A DNA stretch of 64,000 nt from Escherichia phage fEgEco12. Positions 38,000-55,223 of this stretch are shown piece by piece. A program made the position numbers and the translations under genes. Positions within the stretch are counted from its first letter, which is position 1. Every line of letters starts with the position of its first letter. Location of the stretch: sequence record PP777464.1; one strand, written 5' to 3'. The notes under the pieces were generated by a model. It had not been told where the DNA came from, did not search any database, and worked only from the letters and a program-made list of their open reading frames with translations.

Positions 38000-38047
38000 A
38001 TTTCCTCCTTTATTCATTATATCATATTTACCCCAAAAAGAAAACCC
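38000..38047 (-). promoter_or_regulatory. promoter/RBS cassette of array member 15
   Basis: same cassette sequence. Confidence 0.5.
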
Positions 38048-38094
38048 TTGACAACCTTTCAGTACTGGTGTACTATAGAAGGAATATAAGGAGA
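38048..38094 (+). promoter_or_regulatory. promoter of tiny-protein array (TTGACA-17-TACTAT, RBS AAGGAG)
   Basis: TTGACA 38048-38053, TACTAT 38071-38076. Confidence 0.6.
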
Positions 38095-38101
38095 ACTGTA
38101 C

Positions 38102-38329
38102 ATGACAACTACACTTAAGTACTACATTAATACTCTAACTGAACTAGAGTACGCGAAGTTTCTCGCGGATAGTTCGTGGCTAATTGAGCTAAAAACACAT
38201 AACAGTACTGGATGTAACCTTATGCTGAACAATGCACTTGATACCCTTGTAGTGAGTATTTTACACAGCAACATCTGCGGGAATAGCAATAAACAATTAT
38301 CAAAAATCTTAGTACTGGTAGCTCTATGA
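38102..38329 (+). CDS. tiny-protein family member (75 aa)
   Basis: first gene after promoter. Confidence 0.5.
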   Translation: MTTTLKYYINTLTELEYAKFLADSSWLIELKTHNSTGCNLMLNNALDTLVVSILHSNICGNSNKQLSKILVLVAL

Positions 38330-38538
38330 ACACTATGAACATTGAACAGTACTACATCGATGCACTACCAACAAAAGGTCTACGAGAAAGCCTACTGTAT
38401 ACACAAAATAATTATATAAACTTCAAACATTGTCCTAAACTCTTGAACTCGTACAGGAATAATAAAATAAGAAATGCTGTACAAGGGGTAGAAAGTATGC
38501 AATACTATTACATCCTAACCCTTTTAATCGAGCACTAA
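38326..38538 (+). CDS. tiny-protein family member (70 aa)
   Basis: ATGA overlap. Confidence 0.5.
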   Translation: MNTMNIEQYYIDALPTKGLRESLLYTQNNYINFKHCPKLLNSYRNNKIRNAVQGVESMQYYYILTLLIEH

Positions 38539-38539
38539 T

Positions 38540-38725
38540 ATGTATAAAGAATTCTACTGTAGTAAGCTGCACAAACAATACAGAGATTCATTTCCCAATG
38601 AACCTATGGATATGAATAGTCCCTTTTATAAATTTGACTTCAGACTGGAGACACGTTATGCAATAGAACATCAATTTCCTGAAACTAAGTACTTATCTAT
38701 CATGAACCTCATCTTTAAGTTCTAA
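38540..38725 (+). CDS. tiny-protein family member (61 aa, MYKEFY..)
   Basis: tandem paralog. Confidence 0.5.
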   Translation: MYKEFYCSKLHKQYRDSFPNEPMDMNSPFYKFDFRLETRYAIEHQFPETKYLSIMNLIFKF

Positions 38726-38736
38726 AAGAGTACTAT

Positions 38737-38949
38737 ATGAAAACTATGAACATACACCAGTACTACTTAGATATTCTCCCTAAAGATGTACAGTTCATCC
38801 TTAAACAAGAATACAGTACTTTAAAAAACCTTAAAAGAACCGCACCGAATGTATTAATCCTGCACCAAGAAAATGTAGTTGATAATATTCTACAAGGTGT
38901 ACCAGGGACCGAGTACTTTAACATAATAAGGCTAATTACATTACCATGA
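38737..38949 (+). CDS. tiny-protein family member (70 aa)
   Basis: tandem paralog. Confidence 0.5.
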   Translation: MKTMNIHQYYLDILPKDVQFILKQEYSTLKNLKRTAPNVLILHQENVVDNILQGVPGTEYFNIIRLITLP

Positions 38950-39131
38950 ATCATATATTATACTATTACCTAAATCTATCCGACAGGGACAAGTACACCC
39001 ACAACTCCAATGTATGGTACTACAAACGCGGTAGTATAAGAGACAAACAACATTACTTCTGTATTGCTATAAAAGAAGCACTAACAACTAAGTACACGTA
39101 CAGAGCAGTACTGAAACTTATTGATATGTAA
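38946..39131 (+). CDS. tiny-protein family member (61 aa, ..YRAVLKLIDM)
   Basis: tandem paralog. Confidence 0.5.
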   Translation: MNHILYYYLNLSDRDKYTHNSNVWYYKRGSIRDKQHYFCIAIKEALTTKYTYRAVLKLIDM

Positions 39132-39141
39132 AGAGAATACT

Positions 39142-39324
39142 ATGAGCATTGAATTGTACTTAAGTAAATTACAGCCTGGCGATAGATTCATCTACAATAA
39201 GTTCGAATTCAACTACAAGAACGGGAGCAACAAATATCGTCGAGGATACCTATATACAAGCACAAGAGATGCACAAAACGAAAAGTACACATACAGAGAA
39301 GTACTTAAACTAATCTCTATTTGA
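39142..39324 (+). CDS. tiny-protein family member (60 aa, ..YREVLKLISI)
   Basis: ATG start; track start 39121 is TTG. Confidence 0.5.
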   Translation: MSIELYLSKLQPGDRFIYNKFEFNYKNGSNKYRRGYLYTSTRDAQNEKYTYREVLKLISI

Positions 39325-39332
39325 GGTAATAT

Positions 39333-39518
39333 ATGAATACATTTGAGTACTATACAAATAAACTATCTATGCCTGAAAGATCTCATCTCTATGTGTGGAG
39401 AAATGCGTATAAAAGCGGCAATAAACTTATACAAAGAAATTCCCTTACAGTGTGTACAAATTTAATTAAAGCAGAGTACCGCACATATATTGAAGTACTC
39501 AAACTGATAGCAATATAA
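39333..39518 (+). CDS. tiny-protein family member (61 aa)
   Basis: tandem paralog. Confidence 0.5.
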   Translation: MNTFEYYTNKLSMPERSHLYVWRNAYKSGNKLIQRNSLTVCTNLIKAEYRTYIEVLKLIAI

Positions 39519-39526
39519 GGTACTCT

Positions 39527-39706
39527 ATGCAAGAATTCTATATCTATAACCTCCAGCACAAAGATAGATACAACTATAATAAATTCCAAAGGTACTACAC
39601 AGTCGGGAACAAAAGAGATAAAAAACGATACCTACTATCATGTACAGTAGAAGCACAAAACGAAAAGTACACGTACAGAGAAGTACTTAAACTAATCTTA
39701 ATCTAA
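39527..39706 (+). CDS. tiny-protein family member (59 aa, ..YREVLKLILI)
   Basis: below track cutoff; ATG ORF with family C-terminus. Confidence 0.45.
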   Translation: MQEFYIYNLQHKDRYNYNKFQRYYTVGNKRDKKRYLLSCTVEAQNEKYTYREVLKLILI

Positions 39707-39713
39707 GGTAGAC

Positions 39714-39902
39714 ATGAACACTTTTGAGTACTACTTCAATAAACTAAACCACATAGAACAAAGTATGCACAACTCATTTATTCAGCACCATCAATCATCT
39801 GCACATGGAATTAAAAATATATCGATTGAGATTATCACTACCCGTGTACTGTCATCTGAACGTTATATGTATATTGATGTACTGAAACTCATCTCTATGT
39901 AA
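39714..39902 (+). CDS. tiny-protein family member (62 aa)
   Basis: tandem paralog. Confidence 0.5.
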   Translation: MNTFEYYFNKLNHIEQSMHNSFIQHHQSSAHGIKNISIEIITTRVLSSERYMYIDVLKLISM

Positions 39903-39910
39903 GGAATAAT

Positions 39911-40090
39911 ATGCAAGAATACTATATAGAACACATAAGCATTAAAGACCGTTTCATGTACGACACCTTCGTGAAGTACTACAACCTGGCAACTAATAGT
40001 ACTAAAAATATTAATCTCAATAGCTGCATTCATCACGCACTAACAAAAGATAATCCCTTCAGGGAAATCCTCGCTCTCGCATCTGTATAA
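39911..40090 (+). CDS. tiny-protein family member (59 aa, MQEYYI..)
   Basis: below track cutoff. Confidence 0.4.
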   Translation: MQEYYIEHISIKDRFMYDTFVKYYNLATNSTKNINLNSCIHHALTKDNPFREILALASV

Positions 40091-40100
40091 AGGAAACCAA

Positions 40101-40760
40101 ATGAAACTTAATGCACACAGCAAACAATACCTTAAGCACTTTAAATACCTCAACAGTATTCAAGCAGAATCTTTTACACCAGCATATACTTACGACCCGT
40201 GTGTACTAAAGAAACGAAATAAAAAGAAAAAATCCAGAAATGTTCTCGTATCTAAGAACCTCAAATCGTACTTGAAGAAAAATAATATAGCTCTTGCTTT
40301 TATTAATATCTATAATACTGATTTAAAAGTATTGAGTACTAATACCAGCACAAAAGCACTAAAGAATGCATCTATCTATATACACATGGATAATATCCCG
40401 TGCACTATAATTCTATCTTTCGGGAATGTATACTTCTTCGGGAATTGTAATAGCACCCATGATATCAGTACTGCACAATTCCAAATCGGCGATATGTACT
40501 GCATGGGTTCAGAAAAAATACACGATAACATGCACTTCTTCCAAAAGCAACGTACTAACGAAACTGATACAGTACTGCAATTCCTCAAAGAACTAGAACA
40601 CAAAGAATTATCCGAGGAAGAAGAATTCATGTACAGTACTGTAATCGATAATCCAGGACTCTATAAAAACGCGTACAAACTAACAAAACATGTACAGGAA
40701 CTTATCAGTACTGATAAGAAATTTCATCACCTCATTACGTATATTTCAAACTATGTATAA
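40101..40760 (+). CDS. hypothetical protein (219 aa) inside the tiny-protein array
   Basis: ATG with AGGAAA RBS. Confidence 0.55.
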   Translation: MKLNAHSKQYLKHFKYLNSIQAESFTPAYTYDPCVLKKRNKKKKSRNVLVSKNLKSYLKKNNIALAFINIYNTDLKVLSTNTSTKALKNASIYIHMDNIPCTIILSFGNVYFFGNCNSTHDISTAQFQIGDMYCMGSEKIHDNMHFFQKQRTNETDTVLQFLKELEHKELSEEEEFMYSTVIDNPGLYKNAYKLTKHVQELISTDKKFHHLITYISNYV

Positions 40761-40926
40761 AGAATTCTACCTCTCGTACCTTAATTCCGATATAGTAACA
40801 TCCAATACATTCAGTACTAAAATTATCTATAATGAAGTAATGAAAGAATGTATTAAAGGTGCTATTAACCCTAAAGATACGTATGACTTGTACTATGCAG
40901 TACTAACCCTTGTTTTCACGAAATAA
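40753..40926 (+). CDS. tiny-protein family member (57 aa, MYKEFYLSYL..)
   Basis: in-frame ATG; track start 40690 overlaps upstream gene. Confidence 0.45.
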   Translation: MYKEFYLSYLNSDIVTSNTFSTKIIYNEVMKECIKGAINPKDTYDLYYAVLTLVFTK

Positions 40927-40934
40927 CACATAAT

Positions 40935-41126
40935 ATGAATAACCACAAAGAATACTACATAGAGAAACTCCCAATGTATCTCCAACACCTTCTACCAACA
41001 GAACCATTGGGTATAGAAAAAAACTACGAAAAAGACTACTTCATTCAGTGCACTAAATCCTCGATATATATTGAAGACTATAATCGAGTACTGTATCACA
41101 TCCTTTTACTAATATATAGGTACTAA
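40935..41126 (+). CDS. tiny-protein family member (63 aa, MNNHKEYY..LLIYRY)
   Basis: tandem paralog. Confidence 0.5.
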   Translation: MNNHKEYYIEKLPMYLQHLLPTEPLGIEKNYEKDYFIQCTKSSIYIEDYNRVLYHILLLIYRY

Positions 41127-41127
41127 T

Positions 41128-41310
41128 ATGCACAAAGAATACTACACACAATTTCTCCCCAGTATATTTGAACACTACGCCAGATATAAAGTCCCCCTGG
41201 ATAACGATTTGGCAGTACTGGGATTCAATAATTGCATAGAACGCAGTATAGAAAATAGTAGTAGCTATGACCAATTATATAACACTATCCTACTTATATT
41301 CAGGTACTAA
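41128..41310 (+). CDS. tiny-protein family member (60 aa)
   Basis: tandem paralog. Confidence 0.5.
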   Translation: MHKEYYTQFLPSIFEHYARYKVPLDNDLAVLGFNNCIERSIENSSSYDQLYNTILLIFRY

Positions 41311-41311
41311 T

Positions 41312-41500
41312 ATGCATAAAGAATACTACACAAAATATTTCCCAATGTACCTCAGTACTAATCTATTAGATAAACCTCGCGGTATCAATGCACAAAACGA
41401 TAAAGTGTACTTTACTATGTGCACTAAAGCATGTATACTAGATTTTGATAGCTATCATCGAGTACTGTATCATACCCTGTACCTAGCTTTCGTGTACTAA
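41312..41500 (+). CDS. tiny-protein family member (62 aa, MHKEYYTKYF..)
   Basis: in-frame ATG after upstream stop. Confidence 0.5.
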   Translation: MHKEYYTKYFPMYLSTNLLDKPRGINAQNDKVYFTMCTKACILDFDSYHRVLYHTLYLAFVY

Positions 41501-41510
41501 AGAGGCCAAT

Positions 41511-41717
41511 ATGAACGAACAGAAAGAATTTTACACCAAACACCTCAGTGCATCAGAACAAATGTTTCTAAGGAGTGTATCACCTTTACGTTTAGATACA
41601 CCACACGCCAGAGATTGCTTTAATAATTGTATACGTATTACTCTAGAAGCTTTAGAAAACAATAACAAAAATATTCAGTACTCAGGCGTAATGGGACTAA
41701 TATTTTTCTATGAATAA
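41511..41717 (+). CDS. tiny-protein family member (68 aa, MNEQKEFYTKHLS..)
   Basis: near-duplicate of 42094. Confidence 0.5.
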   Translation: MNEQKEFYTKHLSASEQMFLRSVSPLRLDTPHARDCFNNCIRITLEALENNNKNIQYSGVMGLIFFYE

Positions 41718-41901
41718 TTACAAAGAATTCTACTTAAGCCATCTCGATCTAAACTCCCAAATGCTTATACCACTAAACCCAATAGATATCAAGGATAAGA
41801 AAAATACCAAACAATTCCACTACCACACACTATGTGCTATCAACCCAGATTATAATACATATAAACTGTACTACATTCTCGCCCTAATATATAGGTACTG
41901 A
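41710..41901 (+). CDS. tiny-protein family member (63 aa)
   Basis: tandem paralog. Confidence 0.5.
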   Translation: MNNYKEFYLSHLDLNSQMLIPLNPIDIKDKKNTKQFHYHTLCAINPDYNTYKLYYILALIYRY

Positions 41902-41902
41902 T

Positions 41903-42088
41903 ATGCATAGAGAATACTATATACAATTTGTTAAAGGGAACTACAAACACGCCGTCCCCGTAAACCCCTTAAATTCTAATGACCCAAGTACTATATTCTT
42001 GTTCCATGACGCAATACGTACAGTACTCAATACTAAAGATGAACAGGTGCAGTACGTATTCTTACTATTACTTATATACAGACACTAA
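41903..42088 (+). CDS. tiny-protein family member (61 aa)
   Basis: tandem paralog. Confidence 0.5.
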   Translation: MHREYYIQFVKGNYKHAVPVNPLNSNDPSTIFLFHDAIRTVLNTKDEQVQYVFLLLLIYRH

Positions 42089-42093
42089 CTAAT

Positions 42094-42303
42094 ATGAATA
42101 AAGAACATAAAGAATTCTATTCCAAACACCTCAGCCCCACAGAACAAATGTTTCTAAGGACTACAGCACCTTTAAGTACTGATACTTATTTCGGCAGAGT
42201 ATGCTACAATAATTGTATTCAAATGACTTTAAACGCAAACGACAATAATAACAGTACTAATATGTACTCCGGCATCATAGGTATACTATTTCTATATGAA
42301 TAA
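42094..42303 (+). CDS. tiny-protein family member (69 aa)
   Basis: near-duplicate of 41511. Confidence 0.5.
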   Translation: MNKEHKEFYSKHLSPTEQMFLRTTAPLSTDTYFGRVCYNNCIQMTLNANDNNNSTNMYSGIIGILFLYE

Positions 42304-42487
42304 AGAACATAAAGAGTACTATATAAGTAAACTCAAAGAGAATGAACAAGCATGGGTTAACAATTTAATCCCCCTGGCAATGACTCAATACGAATTTAAT
42401 ATGTGTACAAAGATTGTTTTAACTACTAATGATATCTCTAATACGTACTACTTCCTATTAAGAGTACTATATGGTACTTTGAAATAA
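42296..42487 (+). CDS. tiny-protein family member (63 aa)
   Basis: tandem paralog. Confidence 0.5.
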   Translation: MNKEHKEYYISKLKENEQAWVNNLIPLAMTQYEFNMCTKIVLTTNDISNTYYFLLRVLYGTLK

Positions 42488-42498
42488 TAAGGTATACT

Positions 42499-42705
42499 AT
42501 GCAGAACATAAAAAACTATAAAGAGTACTATATAAGTAAACTACCACCGACTGACCAAGCATGGATTAGATCTATAATAGTACTGGCATTTAATAGATAT
42601 GCATTTAACAGATGTACCGAGATTGCTATAGACCCTTATAATATTAAAGAGAATGTACAGCATAATCAGTACTACTATATGTTAATGCTTATATATAGGA
42701 AGTAA
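42499..42705 (+). CDS. tiny-protein family member (68 aa)
   Basis: last array member. Confidence 0.5.
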   Translation: MQNIKNYKEYYISKLPPTDQAWIRSIIVLAFNRYAFNRCTEIAIDPYNIKENVQHNQYYYMLMLIYRK

Positions 42706-43372
42706 TTCAACATATAGACAGGGGAAGCTCCGCAGGGAAAGCATTGGACAGGCTTTAACAATTAGAAGAATTGTTAAAATTCAGCCTGGACAAATGCGAT
42801 CACTAGGATTCTCCCCAGGCTAAACCCCGTAATCATATGTAGTCATAAGTAATCATATATAAACATTTATATGAGCACCGTAGAATCACAGAATGATTAT
42901 ATATGATTCAGTACTGATTATTATAGACAAGATTACTCAAGAATGCTAGGGAAGGATTCAGTACTGCCCTAAAAGTATTCAGTACTGAAGGTGGCGATAT
43001 CCCACTAAGTAGGCAGAGGAAGTCTGCCGTACTTTGTAGTTTCCAAGCTCCTTTTCCATTTTGCAAATTACATCAAATGTAATCAAAAGTAATCACGCAA
43101 TGATTAGTACTGAATTATTACTTTCACCTTAATTACAATTACCCTTTTACCCTTCGGGGTAAAATTCCATTACCCCTTGAGGCTCCAGCAAAAAGTTGGT
43201 TAGTACTCCATCCTAAATCTCGATCCTAAAAATTTTGGAGTACCTATGAAATAAAAGTTGGATCTTCGAAAGTTGAAATTTACGTTGGGACGTTTATGAT
43301 TTGTGGGATATAATGATGTTTGTAATCGGGTAGTTCTCAAGAATATCAGTACTGAAAGATGAAAGAAAGTTA

Positions 43373-43400
43373 TTGACTTTATGATTCAGTACTGTATAAT
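43373..43400 (+). promoter_or_regulatory. orphan sigma70-like promoter (TTGACT-16-TATAAT) with no ORF downstream
   Basis: TTGACT 43373-43378, TATAAT 43395-43400. Confidence 0.45.
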
Positions 43401-43584
43401 GTTCTACATAGGGTGATGAGTTGCTGCGAACAATTCATTTACTCTACCTCCTGTCGTGAGACAGTACAGAAAAGATAGTTCCTCCTGTGGTGGTACATCT
43501 TTTTGAACCTCATATGAAAATCGTAATAACAGTACTGATATTAACAGAATGGTGTCAGTACTGATTTTAATCTAAAGCATTATG

Positions 43585-43604
43585 CCACCAGCTTGTGCTG
43601 GTGG
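43585..43604 (+). other. hairpin CCACCAGC(TTGT)GCTGGTGG containing a Chi octamer
   Basis: perfect 8-bp inverted repeat; GCTGGTGG at 43597-43604. Confidence 0.5.
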
Positions 43605-43740
43605 ATTCCCTCTAACAGTATTCAGTACTACATGATGGTCTTCATCCTCCTAGGGTAACATAGTGAGGGCTATGATGGCAGTACTGAATACTCCCTTTCA
43701 AAAGATAGATCTATGGTATAGTACTGACGGATTTTGGGTG

Positions 43741-43920
43741 TAGTTACCCTGGATGGATTTTGGGCGTAGATATGTCTAGCCCTCCAGAAGTCTGGAAGTA
43801 AAGATGGCTATCCATCTAGACGGCTAAACGGCTAGATTTCTGGATGGCTGGATGGCTGGATGGCTAGACGTTTGGACGGCTAAACGGCTAGATGGTTACA
43901 CGTCTGGAAGTATAGACGGC
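43741..43920. repeat. iteron-like repeat cluster (3x tandem TGGATGGC; 2x 19-bp GACGGCTAAACGGCTAGAT; 2x GTCTGGAAGTA) followed by AT-rich stretch
   Basis: direct repeats read from sequence; no ORF. Confidence 0.6.
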
Positions 43921-44551
43921 TAAATCAAAATTTTATTTTGTTTTTTCCAATAGTTCCCCTACCGCGTGGGGATAGTTTCCCCGCAGTATCTGGTGTTAGA
44001 TTTTTCTGAATCTGGAATCATTATCTTATAAACTGGGGGCAATGTCAACGGCCTGGACGGATATTTTTAAAAATTTTTTCAGTACTGAATTTTGGGCGTA
44101 ACTATGCACCCGGTGGGCTTGAGTCTTTCTCGACTTGATGGAACTATTATACAGTACTGAAAAAATAAAGCAATACCCTGGAAGCAAAAAAGTTTTAATT
44201 AATTTGCTTGCTATCCTGGGCCGGACTATGGTACTATATTTCAGTACTGAGAAAGTGCGTTTACCTGCTAGGGTGCGGGAGTGTATCCTTTTTTTATATC
44301 TTGAATTTTGGACGGATCTTCCCACCCCCTGGGGTATCCGCTTTCTCGCGTCTATGTAGTAATTATACGCTTTTTCAGGATCAAGTCAATACCTAAAAAC
44401 AAAATAATTGAAAATAATTTAACGCGTTTAAACGGCCTGTAAAGCCCTGGAATGATTGGAATGGTGCAAATGTATAGCTTATGTGTATTAATGCGTTAGA
44501 ATGCGTCTGAGGACGTTTTACGGGGTATAGGGATGATTTAGTGGATTGATT

Positions 44552-44638
44552 CAGTACTGAATAATAGTACTCCTATATAGAAAGATAGTTCCCCTGGATG
44601 ATTGCAGTACTGAATAATAGTACTCCTATATAGAAAGA
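44552..44638. repeat. 34-bp direct repeat CAGTACTGAATAATAGTACTCCTATATAGAAAGA x2 (period 53)
   Basis: copies at 44552-44585 and 44605-44638. Confidence 0.65.
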
Positions 44639-44666
44639 AAACTATTTTAAAAGTATTTGTAGAAAG

Positions 44667-44729
44667 TACTTGCACCGTACTGATAAAAGCGTATAATGTT
44701 TTACATCGAGAGCGGGAACACTTCCCGCT
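44667..44729 (+). promoter_or_regulatory. promoter + leader stem-loop module
   Basis: TTGCAC 44670-44675, TATAAT 44692-44697, hairpin AGCGGGAACACTTCCCGCT. Confidence 0.65.
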
Positions 44730-45882: not shown

Positions 45883-46119
45883 ATGAAAATGACTAATATG
45901 TATATGACTGAAGTTAAAACCGTAAAAGATACTACCACGAATAAAACTACTTACTTACAGCGGATCTGTGGTGTATGGCAACGTATCAGCAAATCAAAGT
46001 ACTTTAAATTAACATCATATGCAAACCGTTCGGATTCATTCAGTACTGAAATAAAAGGTAATAAAGTACACCAATACGGCACTTATTATTATTATAGCCT
46101 GGACGCGATTGCAGTATAA
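45883..46119 (+). CDS. hypothetical protein (78 aa)
   Basis: ATG after GGAG RBS. Confidence 0.5.
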   Translation: MKMTNMYMTEVKTVKDTTTNKTTYLQRICGVWQRISKSKYFKLTSYANRSDSFSTEIKGNKVHQYGTYYYYSLDAIAV

Positions 46120-46149
46120 GCAGTTTACAAATCTTTACAATTGCCGGTA

Positions 46150-46178
46150 TTGACTTATTTTGTCAGTACTGGCATAAT
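46150..46178 (+). promoter_or_regulatory. orphan promoter TTGACT-17-CATAAT (rightward)
   Basis: TTGACT 46150-46155, CATAAT 46173-46178; no ORF downstream. Confidence 0.5.
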
Positions 46179-46293
46179 GTATTCATTGGCAGATAAGCCG
46201 TAGCCCATAGGGTGCGGGAGTGTATCTATAGAAAAAGTAGTTTATTACAGTTACAATTGTGCACCCGGTGGGTTAGCTGTTGTCATGGGGTAT
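46179..46293. ncRNA. candidate small RNA locus between convergent promoters
   Basis: contains TAGCCCATAGGGTGC (46201-46215) and its near reverse complement (46260-46276); no ORF. Confidence 0.3.
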
Positions 46294-46322
46294 ATTATGC
46301 CAGTACTTGATAATGCTGTCAA
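46294..46322 (-). promoter_or_regulatory. orphan promoter on minus strand (TTGACA-17-CATAAT), convergent with 46150
   Basis: reverse complement of 46294-46322 gives TTGACA and CATAAT boxes. Confidence 0.5.
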
Positions 46323-46364
46323 TACTTTTTTTTACTATTCAGTACTGAAAACTATTTTTAAAAA

Positions 46365-46396
46365 GTACTTGCAAACTATGTTTAAAGGCGTATAAT
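46365..46396 (+). promoter_or_regulatory. promoter (TTGCAA-16-TATAAT) upstream of a structured non-coding element
   Basis: TTGCAA 46369-46374, TATAAT 46391-46396. Confidence 0.6.
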
Positions 46397-46397
46397 G

Positions 46398-46486
46398 TTT
46401 TACATCAGGACGGGGAACGAAATAAGTAACTTCCCGTTAAGTAGCCCAGGAGTAAGGCACACGAAAAACTCCCCTGATAAAATAGT
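46398..46486 (+). ncRNA. candidate small RNA / structured leader (copy 1 of duplicated element)
   Basis: about 85 nt between two promoters, no ORF; near-identical copy at 56652-56738. Confidence 0.35.
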
Positions 46487-46514
46487 TTGACAAATGTTTT
46501 TAAAAGCGTATAAT
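46487..46514 (+). promoter_or_regulatory. promoter TTGACA-16-TATAAT for gene 46547
   Basis: TTGACA 46487-46492, TATAAT 46509-46514. Confidence 0.6.
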
Positions 46515-46546
46515 ACTTACATCAACTACTGAATGAGGGTTACAAA

Positions 46547-47503: not shown

Positions 47504-47725
47504 ATGGCTAATATCACTACTCTTTCCCAACTGGAAGCACTGGTTAAATCTATGCGGGAACATGCTGACAAAATCGGCGTACAAGATCCAGCCGTTTGCT
47601 TCTGCGACGAATTGAATGATGATACCCTGGTAATAGCAGAAGTCCAGGACGTTTCTAACTATTCCTCGCGTTACACTGGCGGCGTAGCAAATAAAGGTGA
47701 CTTCTGTTTATACCTTACAAAATAA
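47504..47725 (+). CDS. hypothetical protein (73 aa)
   Basis: ATG after GAGGAAA RBS. Confidence 0.5.
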   Translation: MANITTLSQLEALVKSMREHADKIGVQDPAVCFCDELNDDTLVIAEVQDVSNYSSRYTGGVANKGDFCLYLTK

Positions 47726-47728
47726 CAA

Positions 47729-47760
47729 CGCGGGGAGATAATAACTCCCCGTTACTTTTT
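47729..47760 (+). terminator. intrinsic terminator hairpin CGGGGAG..CTCCCCG + T-run
   Basis: 7-bp stem then TTACTTTTT. Confidence 0.6.
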
Positions 47761-47839
47761 CAGTACTGAATCATTTAATAGACGGATCTCGGCACCCGGT
47801 GGGTTAGTGACAGTTTCGTCTTGATGTAATAATTATGCC

Positions 47840-47876
47840 AGTACTGGATGCACTTGTCAACAACTATTTTTTCAAA
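47840..47876 (-). promoter_or_regulatory. orphan minus-strand promoter (TTGACA-17-CATAAT) reading into the 3' end of gene 47504
   Basis: reverse complement gives TTGACAAGTGCATCCAGTACTGGCATAAT; leader carries the TAACCCACCGGGTGC motif. Confidence 0.45.
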
Positions 47877-49994: not shown

Positions 49995-50023
49995 TTGACA
50001 ATAGTTTTAAGTACTGGCATAAT
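49995..50023 (+). promoter_or_regulatory. promoter TTGACA-17-CATAAT
   Basis: TTGACA 49995-50000, CATAAT 50018-50023. Confidence 0.6.
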
Positions 50024-50056
50024 ACATACATCAACTACTGAATAGGAATTAAAAAA

Positions 50057-50284
50057 ATGGCTATTATCATTACTCGCGTATCTGGTACTACTGGCAACGA
50101 ACAAGTAGTTGCAGTCATTACCAACAAGGAAGGTGCGGAATTGCAAAATGCAATGAATACCTGGGCCGTTAATGAGTTCGGTCAGTGGGCAAGTGTAGCA
50201 TACATTGAAACCTATCAAGTGCCGTCGATTAGTTTAACTGATTTGGGCGTTGAGCGTATCCTTTGCCTGGATGAATTAAATTAA
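50057..50284 (+). CDS. hypothetical protein (75 aa)
   Basis: ATG with AGGAA RBS. Confidence 0.55.
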   Translation: MAIIITRVSGTTGNEQVVAVITNKEGAELQNAMNTWAVNEFGQWASVAYIETYQVPSISLTDLGVERILCLDELN

Positions 50285-50288
50285 AAAA

Positions 50289-50352
50289 GTACTTGCAAAG
50301 TAAATCGAATAAAGTATAATACATTACATCAAGGGGAGAAATGATTCTCCCC
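50289..50352 (+). promoter_or_regulatory. promoter + leader stem-loop module
   Basis: TTGCAA 50293-50298, TATAAT 50315-50320, hairpin GGGGAGAAATGATTCTCCCC. Confidence 0.65.
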
Positions 50353-50369
50353 ACTACAAGGAAACTAAT

Positions 50370-50513
50370 ATGAAAACTTGTCAATGTGGTCAGAAATCTA
50401 TTACGGGTTTAAAGCGGGGCGTTGCTCTTTGCCAGTACCATTATAATTTACAAGTATGGGGTAAAGAATGGGCCGACCAGGTGGAAGCAGCAAAGAAAGC
50501 AAAAAGTAAGTAA
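50370..50513 (+). CDS. small cysteine-containing protein (47 aa; CxC..C..H)
   Basis: ATG after AAGGAAA RBS; below track cutoff. Confidence 0.45.
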   Translation: MKTCQCGQKSITGLKRGVALCQYHYNLQVWGKEWADQVEAAKKAKSK

Positions 50514-50525
50514 AAATATTATCAC

Positions 50526-50561
50526 AGTACTATTGACATAGTTTGATAGTACTGGCATAAT
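50526..50561 (+). promoter_or_regulatory. palindrome-embedded promoter (AGTACTAT-N12-ATAGTACT spanning -35 TTGACA; -10 CATAAT)
   Basis: TTGACA 50533-50538, CATAAT 50556-50561. Confidence 0.6.
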
Positions 50562-50602
50562 AGATTTTATCAAGACAACATATTAATTTAAGGAATACAA
50601 AA

Positions 50603-50926
50603 ATGGCTAAAACTATCATTAACACCGTTTCCCTGGCTGCAATCCGTGCAATCAATGTTGACGGTAAACGTTGGACTGATTCATATGGCAATACTTATCA
50701 TTCTTGTCATGTAAGCGTCGAACTGGATAACGGTTTGAATGATCTGGCGGTTGAATCATTTACTTATGGCTATGAAGATGCATATCAACAAACGGCGTTA
50801 GATCTATTAAAGGAATCAGTAGACGGGCTTAATACTGATGAAACCTCCCTTACTCGTTTGTGCAATGATCTTAATATCCCGTTGCATTGTACTGTACAGA
50901 ATGTTAAACGCAAAAAAGATCTTTAA
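50603..50926 (+). CDS. hypothetical protein (107 aa), RWTDSYGNTYHSC family
   Basis: paralog of 57434-57757. Confidence 0.55.
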   Translation: MAKTIINTVSLAAIRAINVDGKRWTDSYGNTYHSCHVSVELDNGLNDLAVESFTYGYEDAYQQTALDLLKESVDGLNTDETSLTRLCNDLNIPLHCTVQNVKRKKDL

Positions 50927-50940
50927 TTAGCTTTACTTTA

Positions 50941-50972
50941 TGCAGATACTTTGATATAGTGTCTGCATAGGG
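50941..50972 (+). other. intergenic hairpin TATGCAGATACT..AGTGTCTGCATA
   Basis: 11-bp inverted repeat with one mismatch. Confidence 0.45.
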
Positions 50973-51006
50973 GAAAGAAATTAAATTAACTTAAGAGGAA
51001 CGTATA

Positions 51007-51276
51007 ATGAAAAATATCAGTACTTTAATCGACGCAGGTACACATGTTCGGCGGTCTATGGTTGCAACCAGTACTACAAAACAAGTAGCGAGCGGTTATC
51101 TTGTATTTGTGCACGATGGTAAACTACTGGAACGTTCAATCAATTTTGATGTTAAAAACAATTGCCGTTTTATTATCTTTAAGCGTGAGCAATATAAAAT
51201 TGATTTACCAGCAAAGCCCATTAGTGGGGCGTACAACGTGCAATCATTGTTTGAACGTCAACCATACACCTATTAA
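51007..51276 (+). CDS. hypothetical protein (89 aa)
   Basis: ATG with GAGGAA RBS. Confidence 0.55.
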   Translation: MKNISTLIDAGTHVRRSMVATSTTKQVASGYLVFVHDGKLLERSINFDVKNNCRFIIFKREQYKIDLPAKPISGAYNVQSLFERQPYTY

Positions 51277-51327
51277 TCAAAACATCGTTAGCGGTCGATT
51301 CAGGCCGCTTATATTGGGGATTATACC

Positions 51328-51600
51328 ATGAACGTTAATCAAGTACTGAATGAAGTTGAAAGCATCATTAAACCAATGAAACGCATTGATGCTATGTTAA
51401 CACCGGAAGAATGCCGCCTATATGAGCGTTATAGCGTCGAACAAGTCCAGGCGATGGCTATGGCTACCCCAGCCGTTAAACCGCCTGAGAATGCGTTACA
51501 GGACGTTACAGGGGATTATATCATTAATCCAGTACTAGGGAAGATGGCTGCAATCACCGAAGATCAACAAGACTACTTAAGCCAGTACTTAAAAGGTTAA
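51328..51600 (+). CDS. hypothetical protein (90 aa)
   Basis: ATG ORF. Confidence 0.5.
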   Translation: MNVNQVLNEVESIIKPMKRIDAMLTPEECRLYERYSVEQVQAMAMATPAVKPPENALQDVTGDYIINPVLGKMAAITEDQQDYLSQYLKG

Positions 51601-51605
51601 TTAAT

Positions 51606-51815
51606 ATGCTTACTGTACAGGATAAGATCGACATCTTAAAGGTTAATATGTATGTGATTGATGCAGTACCTGGTAAAGTATTTGCATACGATGACACCAC
51701 TGTAAGCGATTTCTACTATAGCCAGGACGTGGGGGATCTTTCTGTACAGTCGGTTATTGAAAACGTAGTTAATGTAGCGTATGAGCATTTACTTTCAAAT
51801 AGTACTTGCAATTAG
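51606..51815 (+). CDS. hypothetical protein (69 aa)
   Basis: ATG 5 nt after upstream stop. Confidence 0.45.
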   Translation: MLTVQDKIDILKVNMYVIDAVPGKVFAYDDTTVSDFYYSQDVGDLSVQSVIENVVNVAYEHLLSNSTCN

Positions 51816-51866
51816 TTTTTAAACGCGTATAATGTTTTACATGAAGGGGAGAAATGATTCTCCCCA
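51802..51866 (+). promoter_or_regulatory. promoter + leader stem-loop module
   Basis: TTGCAA 51806-51811, TATAAT 51828-51833, hairpin GGGGAGAAATGATTCTCCCC. Confidence 0.65.
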
Positions 51867-51884
51867 CTAATTAAGGAATATGAA

Positions 51885-52031
51885 ATGAAAGCATCAAAAA
51901 AGAGTAATACTAAGAAAGCACGTTCACCTTTCGCTGGGGTATTCCCTTTACGTTTCGTTGATGAAGTAGTTTCCTACCCGCCGGGCCTTACTCCTGAGAT
52001 GGTAGAAAGTTTGCGTAAATCTAAAAAATAG
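51885..52031 (+). CDS. hypothetical small basic protein (48 aa)
   Basis: ATG after AAGGAA RBS; below track cutoff. Confidence 0.45.
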   Translation: MKASKKSNTKKARSPFAGVFPLRFVDEVVSYPPGLTPEMVESLRKSKK

Positions 52032-52094
52032 TACTTGCAATTAGTTTTTAGTACTGTATAATGTTTTACATGAAGGGGAGAAATGATTCTCCCC
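52031..52094 (+). promoter_or_regulatory. promoter + leader stem-loop module
   Basis: TTGCAA 52035-52040, TATAAT 52057-52062, hairpin GGGGAGAAATGATTCTCCCC. Confidence 0.65.
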
Positions 52095-52112
52095 AATAAC
52101 AGGAGAATCAAA

Positions 52113-52265
52113 ATGAAACAATACAACGCTCGGTTTGATGTTACTATCGGTAACGGCAAAGGTCAATTCTCTTTCAGTACTCGCAAAAGTTATACAGAAA
52201 ACTTCCTGCGTAATTGTGCACTGACCGCCGCACAAATTAAACATTACTTTCAGGCTAAAAAATGA
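52113..52265 (+). CDS. hypothetical small protein (50 aa)
   Basis: ATG after AGGAGAA RBS. Confidence 0.5.
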   Translation: MKQYNARFDVTIGNGKGQFSFSTRKSYTENFLRNCALTAAQIKHYFQAKK

Positions 52266-52351
52266 AATCATTAGCTTATTACAGTTCGGCCCTGGTCGGT
52301 GCATTGATCGCGGCGTTGTTAGTAACCTATCTATTCTTTATGGTGATTTAA
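52262..52351 (+). CDS. tiny hydrophobic peptide (29 aa)
   Basis: ATGA overlap; single predicted TM helix; speculative. Confidence 0.25.
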   Translation: MKSLAYYSSALVGALIAALLVTYLFFMVI

Positions 52352-52495
52352 ATGAATCCAACAGGTTTAAACTATAAAAGTTGTTCGGCGTTTACGAAAG
52401 CAAATAAAGCGAATGCACGTAAAGCGAAAGTACAGGAATACATCAAGCAAGGCATGACGCGAAAGGCGGCGATTCTAAAAGCTAAAAATAAATGA
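52352..52495 (+). CDS. small basic protein (47 aa)
   Basis: TAAATG overlap; speculative. Confidence 0.3.
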   Translation: MNPTGLNYKSCSAFTKANKANARKAKVQEYIKQGMTRKAAILKAKNK

Positions 52496-52501
52496 AAAAA
52501 G

Positions 52502-52533
52502 TGGTTGACTCCGGTCAGCCATTTTGCTATTAT
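52502..52533 (+). terminator. composite terminator-promoter (TGGTTGACTCCGGTCAGCCA; -10 TATTAT)
   Basis: right-arm variant of the left-arm hairpin family. Confidence 0.6.
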
Positions 52534-52622
52534 ATATTCATTGAGAGATAGCTCACTAGCCCACAGGGTGCATAAGTGTATCTATTATATAAGTATTGAG
52601 TACTGAAAACTATTTTTAAAAA
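52534..52622 (+). ncRNA. candidate short transcript carrying TAGCCCACAGGGTGCATAAGTGTATC motif
   Basis: between composite element and next promoter; no ORF. Confidence 0.3.
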
Positions 52623-52687
52623 GTACTTGCAAACTATCTCAATAAGCGTATAATGTTTTACATCGAAAGGGGAAACGGTTTCCCCTG
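52623..52687 (+). promoter_or_regulatory. promoter + leader stem-loop module
   Basis: TTGCAA 52627-52632, TATAAT 52649-52654, hairpin GGGGAAACGGTTTCCCC. Confidence 0.65.
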
Positions 52688-52705
52688 GTAATAAGGAAAC
52701 AAATC

Positions 52706-53047
52706 ATGACTATCTCAATTGCTCAATCTAACTTTGAAAATGAAATCATCGCCCAGGCACTGCGTTTAAATGATGGTCGGGCCGAAATTAATTACGGTTT
52801 CAATTCAGGCGGTTGTGAAAAATATCAGTACTTTGTAACGGCTGATGGCGGTGTCCTGGGTATCAATACAGTTATTGTAAACATACAGAAAATTAATTTC
52901 AATGATCCAGACGATAGCCAGTTTTACATCACTGGCGTAGACGTGAACTATGAGGATGACTCACTAACTGATGATCACACTGGCGAGCGGTTAGAAAGTG
53001 CATACGGTGAAGATGATTATCAGTCCGGTCCAGAAGATTTCGAATAA
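52706..53047 (+). CDS. hypothetical acidic protein (113 aa)
   Basis: ATG after AAGGAAA RBS. Confidence 0.55.
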   Translation: MTISIAQSNFENEIIAQALRLNDGRAEINYGFNSGGCEKYQYFVTADGGVLGINTVIVNIQKINFNDPDDSQFYITGVDVNYEDDSLTDDHTGERLESAYGEDDYQSGPEDFE

Positions 53048-53057
53048 TATAAAAAAA

Positions 53058-53121
53058 TAGTTTGACAATAGATTATAGTACTGTATAATAGTTTACATCA
53101 AGGGGAGAAAAACTTCTCCCC
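53058..53121 (+). promoter_or_regulatory. promoter + leader stem-loop module
   Basis: TTGACA 53062-53067, TATAAT 53084-53089, hairpin GGGGAGAAAAACTTCTCCCC. Confidence 0.65.
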
Positions 53122-53143
53122 ACTAACAGAGAGAAAAAACAAA

Positions 53144-53356
53144 ATGGCTAATATCTGCACTGTACTGAAAAATGCAAAACAAGTTTTATTTTCTGATCAC
53201 GATCATTTAAACAAGGATATTACTGGCGTTCGGAATATCAAAGATGTAAAAAGTGTTATGGGTATCTATTGCAATATGAAACGTGTTGGAACGTTCGGCG
53301 ACAAAGTACTATACCAGGCAGGGGATTACAATTTTACACTGACTATCATTAACTAA
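53144..53356 (+). CDS. hypothetical protein (70 aa)
   Basis: ATG after GAGAGA RBS. Confidence 0.5.
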   Translation: MANICTVLKNAKQVLFSDHDHLNKDITGVRNIKDVKSVMGIYCNMKRVGTFGDKVLYQAGDYNFTLTIIN

Positions 53357-53368
53357 AAATATTATCAC

Positions 53369-53404
53369 AGTACTATTGACATAGTTTGATAGTACTGACA
53401 TAAT
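53369..53404 (+). promoter_or_regulatory. palindrome-embedded promoter (near-duplicate of 50526-50561)
   Basis: TTGACA 53376-53381, CATAAT 53399-53404. Confidence 0.6.
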
Positions 53405-53439
53405 AACTTTTATCAACTACACTACTAAGGAATTAAAAA

Positions 53440-53619
53440 ATGGCTATCATCGCAAAAACTGAAATCGTTGGTCTGGATTCTATCATCATGACGTTTGAAG
53501 ATCAAAAAGGTATGTATGTAGTTTCATATGGTGATTATGTTCGGGAGTATGAAACGGTAGACGAAGCCTTTGAAAGTTATATTCGCCAGGTGAATAAAGC
53601 ATACGACGACTACCGCTAA
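53440..53619 (+). CDS. hypothetical small acidic protein (59 aa)
   Basis: ATG after AAGGAA RBS; below track cutoff. Confidence 0.45.
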   Translation: MAIIAKTEIVGLDSIIMTFEDQKGMYVVSYGDYVREYETVDEAFESYIRQVNKAYDDYR

Positions 53620-53630
53620 AATATATTACC

Positions 53631-53665
53631 AGTACTATTGACATAGATTGATAGTACTGTATAAT
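53631..53665 (+). promoter_or_regulatory. palindrome-embedded promoter variant
   Basis: TTGACA 53638-53643, TATAAT 53660-53665. Confidence 0.6.
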
Positions 53666-53709
53666 AAGTTTTATAAACAGTAGTTAACTTAACCTAAGAG
53701 AGAAATAAA

Positions 53710-53853
53710 ATGATCGCACTGGATTCATTCATCGACGCAGTACTGGCAAAAACTGGCGAGGATCTGACCGCAGAACAATACGCGATGATCGAGCAATGTC
53801 AGCAAAACGGTAAATCGGTGAAAGATACTGTTAAGATTATCCGCAAGATGTAA
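53710..53853 (+). CDS. hypothetical small protein (47 aa)
   Basis: ATG after AGAGAGAAA RBS; paralog of 49834-49986. Confidence 0.45.
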   Translation: MIALDSFIDAVLAKTGEDLTAEQYAMIEQCQQNGKSVKDTVKIIRKM

Positions 53854-53859
53854 TATTAT

Positions 53860-53890
53860 AGCCCACTGGTTAACGCTGGTGGGCTTTAAT
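53860..53890 (+). terminator. hairpin GCCCAC..GTGGGC containing a Chi octamer
   Basis: inverted repeat after stop; weak T-run; GCTGGTGG 53875-53882. Confidence 0.45.
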
Positions 53891-53958
53891 CATTTACCCT
53901 ATACAATGCCAGTACTAAACCGTTTATCTCGTTAGAATGCGTTACAGGACGTTTGACA

Positions 53959-54156
53959 ATGATTAGCATGAAATCAGTACAAAAACAAATAGAAACATTA
54001 TCAAAAATTAAACGTAAACAGTACTCGTTAGAATATACAATCAATGGTAACTATCATCTAATGAAAGAGAATAATTTCATTGTCATTGATGAATCATTGC
54101 AAGTTATTAGTATAGTACTGAAAGCATTAATCAATGACAGAAAAAAATTAAAATAA
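53959..54156 (+). CDS. hypothetical protein (65 aa), uncertain
   Basis: AT-rich ORF without a clear RBS; track start is TTG. Confidence 0.3.
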   Translation: MISMKSVQKQIETLSKIKRKQYSLEYTINGNYHLMKENNFIVIDESLQVISIVLKALINDRKKLK

Positions 54157-54160
54157 TCTA

Positions 54161-54189
54161 TTGACAATATCCTCCAGTACTGGCATAAT
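54161..54189 (+). promoter_or_regulatory. orphan promoter TTGACA-17-CATAAT
   Basis: TTGACA 54161-54166, CATAAT 54184-54189; leader carries AACCCATAGGGTGCAC. Confidence 0.5.
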
Positions 54190-54250
54190 ACTTACATCAA
54201 GACGAGAACGTCACTAACCCATAGGGTGCACAAATGTAACTATATAATAT
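54190..54250 (+). ncRNA. candidate short transcript with ACCCATAGGGTGC motif
   Basis: no ORF downstream. Confidence 0.3.
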
Positions 54251-54251
54251 C

Positions 54252-54324
54252 GATCAATAAATGATCAAAAAAGTACTGGATCAATTTAGCATAAGGCGTA
54301 TAATTCTGATCAATTCTTGATCAA
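54252..54324 (+). promoter_or_regulatory. cluster of five GATCAA repeats around a promoter (TATAAT 54299-54304)
   Basis: GATCAA at 54252, 54263, 54279, 54308, 54319; two pairs spaced 11 bp. Confidence 0.5.
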
Positions 54325-54485
54325 AGGCAATATACGCAGTTGAATTTATATAGACAGTACAAAGGCGTTACTATTCGTGGTAATGCTGGTGGATATGTAG
54401 TATCATATGGTTTGAATAAGATAAACACTAGTAGTATTATTGTAGCATTACAGTACTATAGTATTTTTATAATGAGGTTAAAATA

Positions 54486-54743: not shown

Positions 54744-54748
54744 AAAGT

Positions 54749-54776
54749 ATTGACAGTACTGAAAGATAGTGTATAA
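54749..54776 (+). promoter_or_regulatory. promoter TTGACA-16-TATAAT
   Basis: TTGACA 54749-54754, TATAAT 54771-54776. Confidence 0.6.
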
Positions 54777-54806
54777 TGTTTTATATCTTAACTGAGGATA
54801 GTAATC

Positions 54807-55163: not shown

Positions 55164-55166
55164 TAC

Positions 55167-55223
55167 TTGCATTTAGTTTTCAGTACTGTTATAGTACTTG
55201 CATCAAGGGGAAACATCTTCCCC
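55167..55223 (+). promoter_or_regulatory. promoter + leader stem-loop module
   Basis: TTGCAT, TATAGT, hairpin GGGGAAACATCTTCCCC. Confidence 0.6.

Follow-up and report, generated by a model that had tools for sequence, protein, structure and literature searches.

Which transcripts arise from two strong promoters that face each other across a short stretch of DNA in which no gene is found? The question is raised by positions 46,150–46,322 of a 64,000-nucleotide stretch of DNA from Escherichia phage fEgEco12 (sequence record PP777464.1; the whole stretch is called the window below, and positions are its own unless another genome is named). An earlier note, made from the sequence alone, had seen there a convergent pair of promoters flanking about 115 bp and had proposed an RNA-based toxin-antitoxin or antisense control module. 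The convergent promoters are real and far beyond chance, and the mechanism drawn from them was correct in part as to geometry and mistaken as to kind. The 115-bp "orphan" segment consists of two inverted copies, arranged tail to tail, of one repeated module. The reading favoured here, with slightly better than even confidence, is that this module, confined to the direct terminal repeat (DTR) of the phage, joins a strong sigma-70-type promoter to a structured non-coding RNA (ncRNA) of ~58 nt.

Two promoters facing each other

The 2.5 kb surrounding the locus are 92–99% identical to the Asteriusvirus jumbo coliphages EC.P1, vB_EcoM_G17, slurp01, PBECO4 and 121Q, and the source of the window is an Asteriusvirus (a PBECO4/121Q/G17-like jumbo coliphage). 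Both promoters of the pair, named P1 and P2, are present as had been described, and a third one, which had been placed at 47840–47876, actually lies at 47860–47832.

46150–46178 (+): P1 promoter, −35 TTGACT, 17-nt spacer with an AGTACTG motif, extended −10 TGgCATAAT, 10/12
46322–46294 (−): P2 promoter, TTGACA-17-CATAAT with the extended −10 TG, 11/12
47832–47860 (−): third orphan promoter, of the same family as P1 and P2

The P1 promoter is invariant across nine Asteriusvirus genomes. All three are members of a family, TTGACA-N9-AGTACTGGCATAAT, which has nine members in the window where shuffled sequences would give 0.02. Since five of the nine directly precede genes, lying ~35 nt 5' of a Shine-Dalgarno sequence (SD) and ATG, the family is regarded as a working gene-promoter type.

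The segment between P1 and P2 is non-coding, as had been claimed, and a search of 46120–46360 on both strands for short open reading frames (ORFs) with a ribosome-binding site returned none of at least 8 codons with an SD 3–16 nt upstream. Two longer ORFs without an SD, of 32 codons from GTG (46212–46310) and 36 codons from ATG (46285–46395), are both disrupted in close relatives by variable T-runs, a 5-nt deletion and cassette swaps. Micro-ORFs have been annotated over the P1, P2 and P3 promoters and their elements in two related records (A4_267, at 561–677 of L025; WPEC3_CDS063–065, at 372–470, 581–670 and 670–765 of L028), and these are very likely spurious.

No intrinsic terminator was found between P1 and P2 on either strand, and ~100 nt of overlapping sense and antisense transcription is therefore predicted from the two convergent, near-consensus promoters. 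To this extent the idea of a sense/antisense locus holds; what does not hold is that of a unique pair, as the two arms are copies of a repeat. The toxin-antitoxin architecture has no counterpart, as a toxin ORF with a ribosome-binding site is neither present nor conserved.

A repeated module of promoter and RNA

The motif TAGCCCATAGGGTGC and its near reverse complement GCACCCGGTGGGTTAG, both of which had been noticed in the segment, lie at 46201–46215 and 46261–46276, and the 16-mer, with up to 3 mismatches allowed, occurs eight times in the window against 0.12 expected. When the contexts of all CCCANNGGGTGC-like sites are compared, P1 and P2 are each seen to be followed by one copy of a module, in which a promoter is followed by an arm of 20–29 nt with a hairpin (HP1), by the near-invariant core RCCC-AYA-GGGUGC and, behind a purine-rich pentamer, by the tail UGUAUCUAU. 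A covariance model (CM) built on 22 module copies detects exactly ten copies in the window, with its speed filters on or off, and none in 1–44000. Besides the convergent pair, the module occurs singly eight further times, in both orientations.

44084–44141 (−): element copy (CM), facing the left genome end
44300–44357 (−): element copy (CM), in a degenerate tail-to-tail pair with a truncated copy at 44238–44298 (+)
46181–46237 (+): element copy 1 (P1 RNA), CM 54.6 bits, E 6e-12, predicted transcription start site (TSS) near 46185
46239–46297 (−): element copy 2 (P2 RNA), short arm without HP1, CM 43.6 bits, E 1e-8, predicted TSS near 46287
47770–47827 (−): element copy with HP1 GAC/GUC, core CCCACCGGGUGC and tail UCCGUCUAU, CM 53.8 bits
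52498–52593 (+): composite unit of a 12-bp terminator hairpin with −35 TTGACT in its stem, −10 TATTAT, and element copy 52536–52593
54161–54251 (+): AGTACTGGCATAAT-type promoter and element copy 54194–54251
56496–56586 (+): terminator/promoter composite and element copy 56528–56586
59765–59860 (+): terminator/promoter composite and element copy 59803–59860
62517–62607 (+): terminator/promoter composite and element copy 62549–62607

The truncated copy at 44238–44298 (+), in which AGGGTGCGGGAGTGTATCC is followed by T7, reads as a terminator and forms a decayed convergent pair with the copy at 44300 (−).

In the window and the loci collected from relatives, 70 of 75 instances of the core motif have a promoter-like site (≥8/12) in the expected upstream window. 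The five promoter-less instances look like chance sites, as does one of the 70, which lies inside a coding sequence at window position 24188. The distance from the −10 to the core varies between 20 and 29 nt and is bimodal, owing to the insertion of a covarying hairpin. Module copies are tied to three promoter contexts, namely the AGTACTGGCATAAT type, TTGACT-17-TATTAT with its −35 in a 12-bp terminator hairpin, and ordinary TATAAT, and because the module occurs with all three, the RNA and not the promoter is taken to be the conserved unit. In the composites (52498–52533, 56496–56531, 59765–59800 and 62517–62552, all +), the 12-bp hairpin has a UCCG loop (AAAGGGATTGACTCCGGTCAGTCCCTTT), its stem holds the −35 TTGACT and its U-tract holds the −10 TATTAT; the same design is also found in phages GAP32, CBB, Munch and RaK2.

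A palindrome, CAGTACTG, is a separate feature of this DNA, with 73 sites in the window, both intergenic and coding, against 1.08 expected. It is located inside both promoter classes (AAAGTACTTGCAA... and ...AGTACTGGCATAAT) and is also found free-standing as TTCAGTACTGAA, usually 10–25 nt 3' of each element.

Structure of the RNA

The structural case for the module is comparative and does not rest on folding energy. Its parts at the locus are the following.

46188–46190 and 46197–46199 (+): copy 1 HP1, GGC/GCC, loop AGAUAA
46203–46206 and 46210–46213 (+): copy 1 HP2, GCCC/GGGU, loop AUA
46210–46215 and 46222–46227 (+): copy 1 alternative hairpin HP3, GGGUGC/GUAUCU
46221–46229 (+): copy 1 tail UGUAUCUAU
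46230–46246: A/T-rich spacer of 17 nt between the two tails, centre of the inverted repeat
46261–46274 (−): copy 2 core AACCCACCGGGUGC, the reverse complement of these positions; copy 2 tail UGUAACUGU (−)

The stem of HP1 has 3–5 bp and is fully different between copies (GGC/GCC, GAG/CUC, GACG/CGUC, GUC/GAC, CGC/GCG, CCAC/GUGG, GCCG/CGGC, UCCA/UGGA, AGCA/UGCU), and the loop is purine-rich and 6–7 nt long (GAGAAA, GCGAAA, AGAUAA or AGAACAA). In the CM alignment its covariation scores 0.333 against 0.142±0.013 after shuffling (0/500) and at most 0.079 for slid partners; in a MAFFT alignment, which is not fitted to the structure, it scores 0.234 against 0.128 for shuffles (0/500). A test of the best hairpin in the arm against shuffles is non-discriminating, and position-specific pair counts were used in its place. 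RNAalifold alone recovers just HP2, because HP1 is misregistered or missing in some copies.

HP2 pairs RCCC with GGGU around a loop of 3–4 nt, and 98.5% of its cells are paired. Among distinct sequences, 31 close it with A-U and 31 with G-U, and a compensatory CCU/AGG is present in two copies. HP3 pairs GGGUGC with the tail, with 92% of cells paired against 31–66% for slid partners; at four tail positions every change keeps pairing (U or C opposite G, A or G opposite U), and the adjacent column 55 tolerates transversions. HP2 and HP3 are mutually exclusive and nearly iso-energetic (means of −3.6 and −2.9 kcal/mol, HP3 being lower in 37 of 65), so that the core appears to be a small bistable element in which GGGUG would have two alternative partners, RCCC on its 5' side (HP2) and YRYCY of the tail on its 3' side (HP3). 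Since many of the pairs are G-U, the pairing constraint is strand-specific, which argues for an RNA over a site in duplex DNA.

Two further structural ideas were rejected. The first is a long-range stem between the 5' arm and the tail UGUAUCUAU, for which AGAUA/UAUCU, AGACG/CGUCU and UUACAU/AUGUAA can be picked out by eye; when tails are permuted among copies, p is 0.09 overall and 0.52 for non-consensus tails. The second is an attenuator with HP3 as a general terminator, which fails because a U-run 3' of the tail is present in a minority of copies.

The terminal repeat and related phages

In phage vB_Ec-M-J, the counterpart of the locus falls within the annotated DTR of 21,525 bp, and all ten of its module copies are located at 1.1–20.1 kb, inside the DTR, with none in 21.5–60 kb. 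Position 1078 of locus L002 corresponds to window position 44084, which puts the physical left genome end near window position 43,007. From such matching of element positions to the annotated DTR, 43,007–64,000 is taken to be wholly DTR, and the convergent promoter pair thus sits within a DTR of ~21 kb. Small genes and spacers of 80–400 bp make up this region, with near-consensus promoters and terminator-like hairpins in many spacers, and directly past it gene packing is tight. Promoters are very frequent here: the plus strand of 50000–64000 holds 11 perfect 12/12 sigma-70 promoters (TTGACA-16/17-TATAAT).

The module is also present beyond the genus. The CM finds 76 module copies in 20 loci, from Alcyoneusvirus RaK2, Mimasvirus GAP32 and CBB, Munch-like phages and uncultured relatives. 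The P1 RNA is 82–86% identical in Klebsiella phages RaK2 and K64-1, Cronobacter phage GAP32, Pectobacterium phage CBB and Salmonella phage Munch, and its orthologues in RaK2, GAP32, CBB and Munch have the same HP1. These cross-genus copies are always intergenic and in the terminal-repeat region, and blastn aligns none of the flanking DNA. In a scan of IMG/VR with an exact pattern, matches in the whole genomes of RaK2, 121Q and GAP32 are confined to a single region of at most 20 kb, and those in CBB lie in both copies of the DTR. The module is restricted to the terminal repeat.

Searches in other databases gave no counterpart. Rfam 15 has no match at the gathering threshold in the whole window, and the best sub-threshold matches in 46100–46420 reach at most 19 bits against thresholds of 40–60; module matches are absent from E. 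coli genomes. A metagenome scan with TAACCCANAGGGTGC returned at least 120 loci, and among the matches listed none has promoter and tail, so they look like chance. A search of the literature found neither a description of this early-RNA family nor a transcriptome or transcription-start map of Rak2-like phages, and the motif is not described in the genome papers of CBB and RaK2. Other searches add little on function: no tRNA or tmRNA was found in the whole window, and Pfam recognises only DUF7249 among the proteins neighbouring the locus, with no functional hint. In the fetched records, nearly all terminal-repeat (early) genes of Rak2-like phages are annotated as hypothetical.

Single copies and tail-to-tail pairs

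Reverse and forward single copies differ in what follows them. Of the 17 reverse-oriented single copies listed from the window and the loci, 13 (the 47.8-kb copy and 12 of 16 others) precede a U-tract terminator, a G+C-rich hairpin 25–35 nt past the tail that is the bidirectional terminator of a convergent protein gene, and free RNAs of ~95–110 nt are therefore predicted. The 47.8-kb copy illustrates this.

47731–47751: bidirectional terminator hairpin, which would end the RNA of the 47.8-kb element at ~100 nt

The earlier note had this RNA running antisense across the 3' end of gene 47504–47725; as the terminator-like hairpin (47751–47731, −) precedes the stop codon at 47725, the RNA would barely overlap the coding sequence, and the overlap shrinks essentially to the 3' untranslated region (UTR) and the terminator. 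Forward copies have no terminator and lead into the next gene's own promoter, and at position 12592 of locus L021 a forward copy directly becomes the 5'UTR of a gene with SD and ATG. Outside the pair, four of the five forward copies are located right behind the region's only strong terminators, at intervals of ~3 kb.

Tail-to-tail pairs are found beyond this locus and its 121Q orthologue in GAP32, Munch, L008, L009 (two), L018 and L021. Core-to-core spacing is exactly 57 bp in five pairs (window, 121Q, GAP32, L009 and L018), 68 bp in two and 75 bp in two. Every one of the nine close pairs found in the loci is convergent, some being orthologues of each other, and no tandem or divergent pairs less than 150 bp apart were seen. 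As like pairs recur in other genera, the convergent geometry is probably not accidental. The pair of the window is kept in 9/9 aligned Asteriusvirus genomes, in which arms have been replaced as cassettes, that of P1 in 121Q, A4 and TH47 and that of P2 in EJP2 and WPEC3. In RaK2, GAP32, CBB and Munch the orthologue of the P1 copy has no partner, from which it follows that pairing arose more than once.

At the centre of the 68- and 75-bp pairs of Munch-like and uncultured phages (L006 148–166, L021 6091–6109, L008 1286–1304) a Fur-box-like palindrome is observed, for example GATAATGATAATCATTTAC, with two mismatches to the 19-bp consensus. No Fur-box-like site with at most 3 mismatches is present in the window.

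Possible function and alternative explanations

If the locus is a pair of promoter and ncRNA modules, host RNA polymerase would fire at all copies upon entry of the terminal repeat into the cell. Reverse single copies would end at the neighbour's bidirectional terminator and be released as free RNAs, and forward copies would form the 5' part of transcripts that continue into the next gene. At the pair, two polymerases would converge over ~100 nt, and each promoter would limit the other through collision or occlusion. The upstream gene, 45883–46119, has no terminator, and as there is none between the promoters either, polymerases that start at P2 would have to meet those that start at P1 or read through from upstream within ~100 nt. 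Read-through transcripts fold with −38.5 kcal/mol (z −3.7) on the plus strand and −28.7 kcal/mol (z −4.2) on the minus strand, and read-through RNA, including that from gene 45883–46119, could form a long imperfect hairpin suited to RNase III. Because the inverted repeat folds into such a substrate, the pair may be not only a source of the RNA module but also a barrier to transcription, or a site of RNA processing, between two genes.

The module is predicted to act most likely through the binding of a host or phage protein and not through antisense pairing: its core is conserved in sequence, its ten copies each follow a strong immediate-early promoter, and comparison with phage leaders and with E. 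coli showed no complementarity. Shuffled elements pair with the 19 class-1 5' leaders of the DTR at duplex energies at least as good as those of the element RNAs. A more far-reaching proposal, put forward tentatively, is that of a new multi-copy class of immediate-early RNA, made from ~20 strong promoters (ten per terminal repeat) seconds after entry, which could serve as a protein-binding decoy or as a polymerase-modifying leader in the take-over of the host, with HP2 and HP3 as an element for recognition or switching and the pairs as self-limiting production sites and transcription insulators.

Several points weigh against the favoured reading. HP1 is cut to 2–3 bp or missing in about one third of the copies, P2 included (EJP2 and WPEC3 have a full HP1 arm at the P2 site), and HP2 and HP3 have only 4–6 bp. 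Folding of single elements is no better than that of shuffles (z of −1.8 and +0.28). True covariation of HP3 is not scorable because its 5' strand is invariant, and sequence subfamilies of the module are non-independent events. Promoter activity is a prediction, and so are the TSSs and the 3' ends. The two TSSs are ~102 nt apart, and simple collision geometry suggests that, if both promoters fired at once, both RNAs would be cut short of a full module. Neither a binding partner nor a target came to light, complementarity having been sought in phage leaders and in E. coli. Forward copies, which lack terminators, would need processing for a role as free small RNAs (sRNAs).

Among the alternatives, the one that survives best, though still unlikely, is a cis-acting leader like the nut or put sites, with HP1 (as a boxB-like hairpin) and the core loading a phage or host factor onto RNA polymerase during transcription, or binding polymerase directly, and so changing elongation or termination of transcripts begun at these promoters. 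The short, fixed distance to the promoter would suit such a leader, and so would an HP1 whose stem varies while its purine-rich loop is conserved; yet HP1 is dispensable in one third of copies, its loops of 6–7 nt are not GNRA-like pentaloops, and no boxA-like sequence is seen in the alignments inspected (A1 and A2). Forward copies right behind the region's only strong terminators, where they head gene blocks of ~3 kb, and the copy that is itself a 5'UTR (L021 12592) are in line with a leader, but the downstream genes each have their own promoter. Reverse copies meet a good terminator within 25–35 nt, and behind it there is only antisense DNA, which a leader would not explain. No antitermination family of Rfam is matched.

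It is rather improbable that the module is a recombination cassette like the promoter-early stem-loops (PeSLs) that mainly shuffles small early genes, with a functionless transcribed part and the pair as a by-product of inverted duplication. Cross-genus conservation is greatest in the transcribed RNA and not in the promoter, and pairing is strand-specific and rich in G-U, both of which speak against such a cassette; in its favour, four copies have a terminator hairpin joined to the promoter, as PeSLs have (PMC4122927). The DTR does consist of monocistronic small genes with indels between relatives, and P1 and P2 arms are exchanged as cassettes between close relatives; the indels observed, however, lie between promoters of the other class and not at the element, the pair is kept in 9/9 genomes, and the elements do not end in SD and ATG as PeSLs do.

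Less probable again is an element that acts as DNA, in which CCCAYAGGGTGC-N5-TGTATCTAT would be an operator or roadblock, bound by a DNA-binding protein of phage or host, ~25–55 bp 3' of some immediate-early promoters, used for shut-off or for replication, recombination or packaging of the DTR. Its restriction to the DTR and a core conserved as sequence, and not just in pairing potential, speak for it, as does the Fur-box-like palindrome between copies in the 68- and 75-bp pairs of other phages. A DNA site would not account for a distance from the −10 that varies by insertion of a covarying hairpin, nor for the half of HP2 closing pairs and most HP3 pairs that are G-U and would be C-A mismatches on the other strand, and no convincing copy of the motif lacks a correctly oriented promoter.

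A type I toxin-antitoxin system requires a small toxin ORF, usually of under 60 aa, and a locus-specific system of this type is largely refuted by the absence of such an ORF with a ribosome-binding site, the candidate ORFs being broken in relatives; since both arms also belong to a ten-member repeat, a dedicated sense/antisense control module is likewise highly improbable, even though the promoters converge and ~100 nt of transcription overlap is predicted, with no toxin mRNA there to be overlapped.

Neighbouring features

A second non-coding module is duplicated at 46340–46535 and 56597–56790, each time just past an element copy. It comprises a class-1 promoter (46369–46396), a structured leader of ~85 nt (46403–46480) and a perfect consensus promoter (46487–46514); the leader has no ORF, folds with −19.4 kcal/mol and has GGAG/CUCC changed to GGUG/CACC in EJP2. 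As this module adjoins the pair, the 427-bp spacer 46120–46546 holds four promoters and three predicted non-coding transcripts.

Chi sites of E. coli (GCTGGTGG) number 20 in the window, where 0.68 would be expected, and their orientation tracks the local gene direction.

49688, 53875, 54385, 55335, 56584, 58932, 60830, 62409 and 62632 (+): examples of Chi sites in the DTR

An inverted pair of Chi sites near the probable left genome end makes a hairpin at 43585–43604 (CCACCAGC-TTGT-GCTGGTGG). This arrangement may protect the linear genome from RecBCD. Degenerate tandem repeats with periods of 8, 16 and 32 and units CTGGATGG and GGCTAGACGG are found at 43816–43922, ~0.8 kb from the probable left end and within a gene-free leader of 1.7 kb (43007–44695); they could be iteron-like or related to packaging.

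Just ahead of the DTR boundary, ~20 very short paralogous ORFs seem to be arrayed in tandem (38000–42700), and ...AAAGAATACTAC... (KEYY) recurs close to the start of each. Further upstream, 19665–38017 (−) is a block of ~15 paralogous genes of 373–402 aa, of which the one searched, 21550–22686, has weak, below-cutoff matches to RCC1-like repeats.

Significance

The analysis adds a repeated, conserved, DTR-restricted module of promoter and ncRNA for which no prior description was found, and the locus is a conserved convergent pair of it. Rak2-like jumbo phages (PBECO4, 121Q, RaK2, K64-1, GAP32, CBB) are under development for therapy, and a conserved RNA motif that marks one tenth of the intergenic regions in the first DNA to enter the cell offers a testable handle on how immediate-early transcription is organised. 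The CM is ready for annotating Rak2-like genomes, where spurious micro-ORFs are called over promoters (A4_267, WPEC3_CDS064). Should the RNA prove to bind a host factor or to modify RNA polymerase, a new type of phage take-over RNA would be added to those known.

Comparison with known systems

The OOP RNA of phage lambda is the product of a single-copy gene and overlaps ~55 nt of the cII coding sequence. The 47.8-kb copy and reverse copies elsewhere resemble it in having an orphan promoter convergent to a gene, a short RNA and an intrinsic terminator near the gene's 3' end; a terminator of this kind is found for the 47.8-kb copy and other listed reverse copies (13/17), but not for P1 and P2. 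They differ from it in that only the shared terminator is overlapped and in that the body of the RNA is multi-copy, conserved and unrelated to the neighbouring gene.

In coliphage 186, pR and pL are face-to-face promoters that serve different gene sets of a developmental switch and are subject to transcriptional interference. The locus has the same arrangement of two strong convergent promoters ~100 bp apart with no terminator between them, whereas here both promoters drive the same non-coding module.

With the nut sites of lambda and the put sites of HK022, the module shares a promoter-proximal RNA, a hairpin with a variable stem and purine-rich loop, and a sequence-conserved element. Unlike these, it has no boxA (CGCUCUUUA-like), its loop sizes are different, its ten copies lie in both orientations, and many of them directly precede terminators with nothing behind.

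The PeSLs of T4-type phages are made up of an AT-rich region, then a stem-loop and a sigma-70-like promoter, and they end in the SD and start codon of the gene behind them (Comeau 2014, PMC4122927; also Arbiol 2010, PMC2839356). Both systems are short repeated intergenic cassettes in the plastic early region of a T4-related myovirus, with a terminator stem-loop combined with a near-consensus sigma-70 promoter and evidence of cassette exchange between relatives. PeSLs, however, have no conserved transcribed RNA, whereas here an ncRNA of ~58 nt is the conserved unit, and SD and start codon at the 3' end are absent, with L021 12592 as the only exception seen. The stem-loop is present in four of the ten window copies, where it overlaps the −35, and is missing at P1, P2, 47860 and 54161. 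PeSLs lie at indel or replacement boundaries between close relatives; here, arms are swapped within the element and nearby gene indels lie between promoters of the other class.

The terminal repeat of Pseudomonas phage PA5oct encodes ncRNA001 and ncRNA002, which by RNA-seq are highly expressed throughout infection (PMC7318152). PA5oct is a distantly related jumbo phage, and its two RNAs, which are likewise non-coding and come from a long terminal repeat, are 236–451 nt long and single-copy. Neither in sequence nor in structure do they match the element, and no CM hit in PA5oct 1–45 kb has an E below 0.27. The element is thus akin to repeated early regulatory cassettes and to phage sRNAs, and it stands outside any named family.

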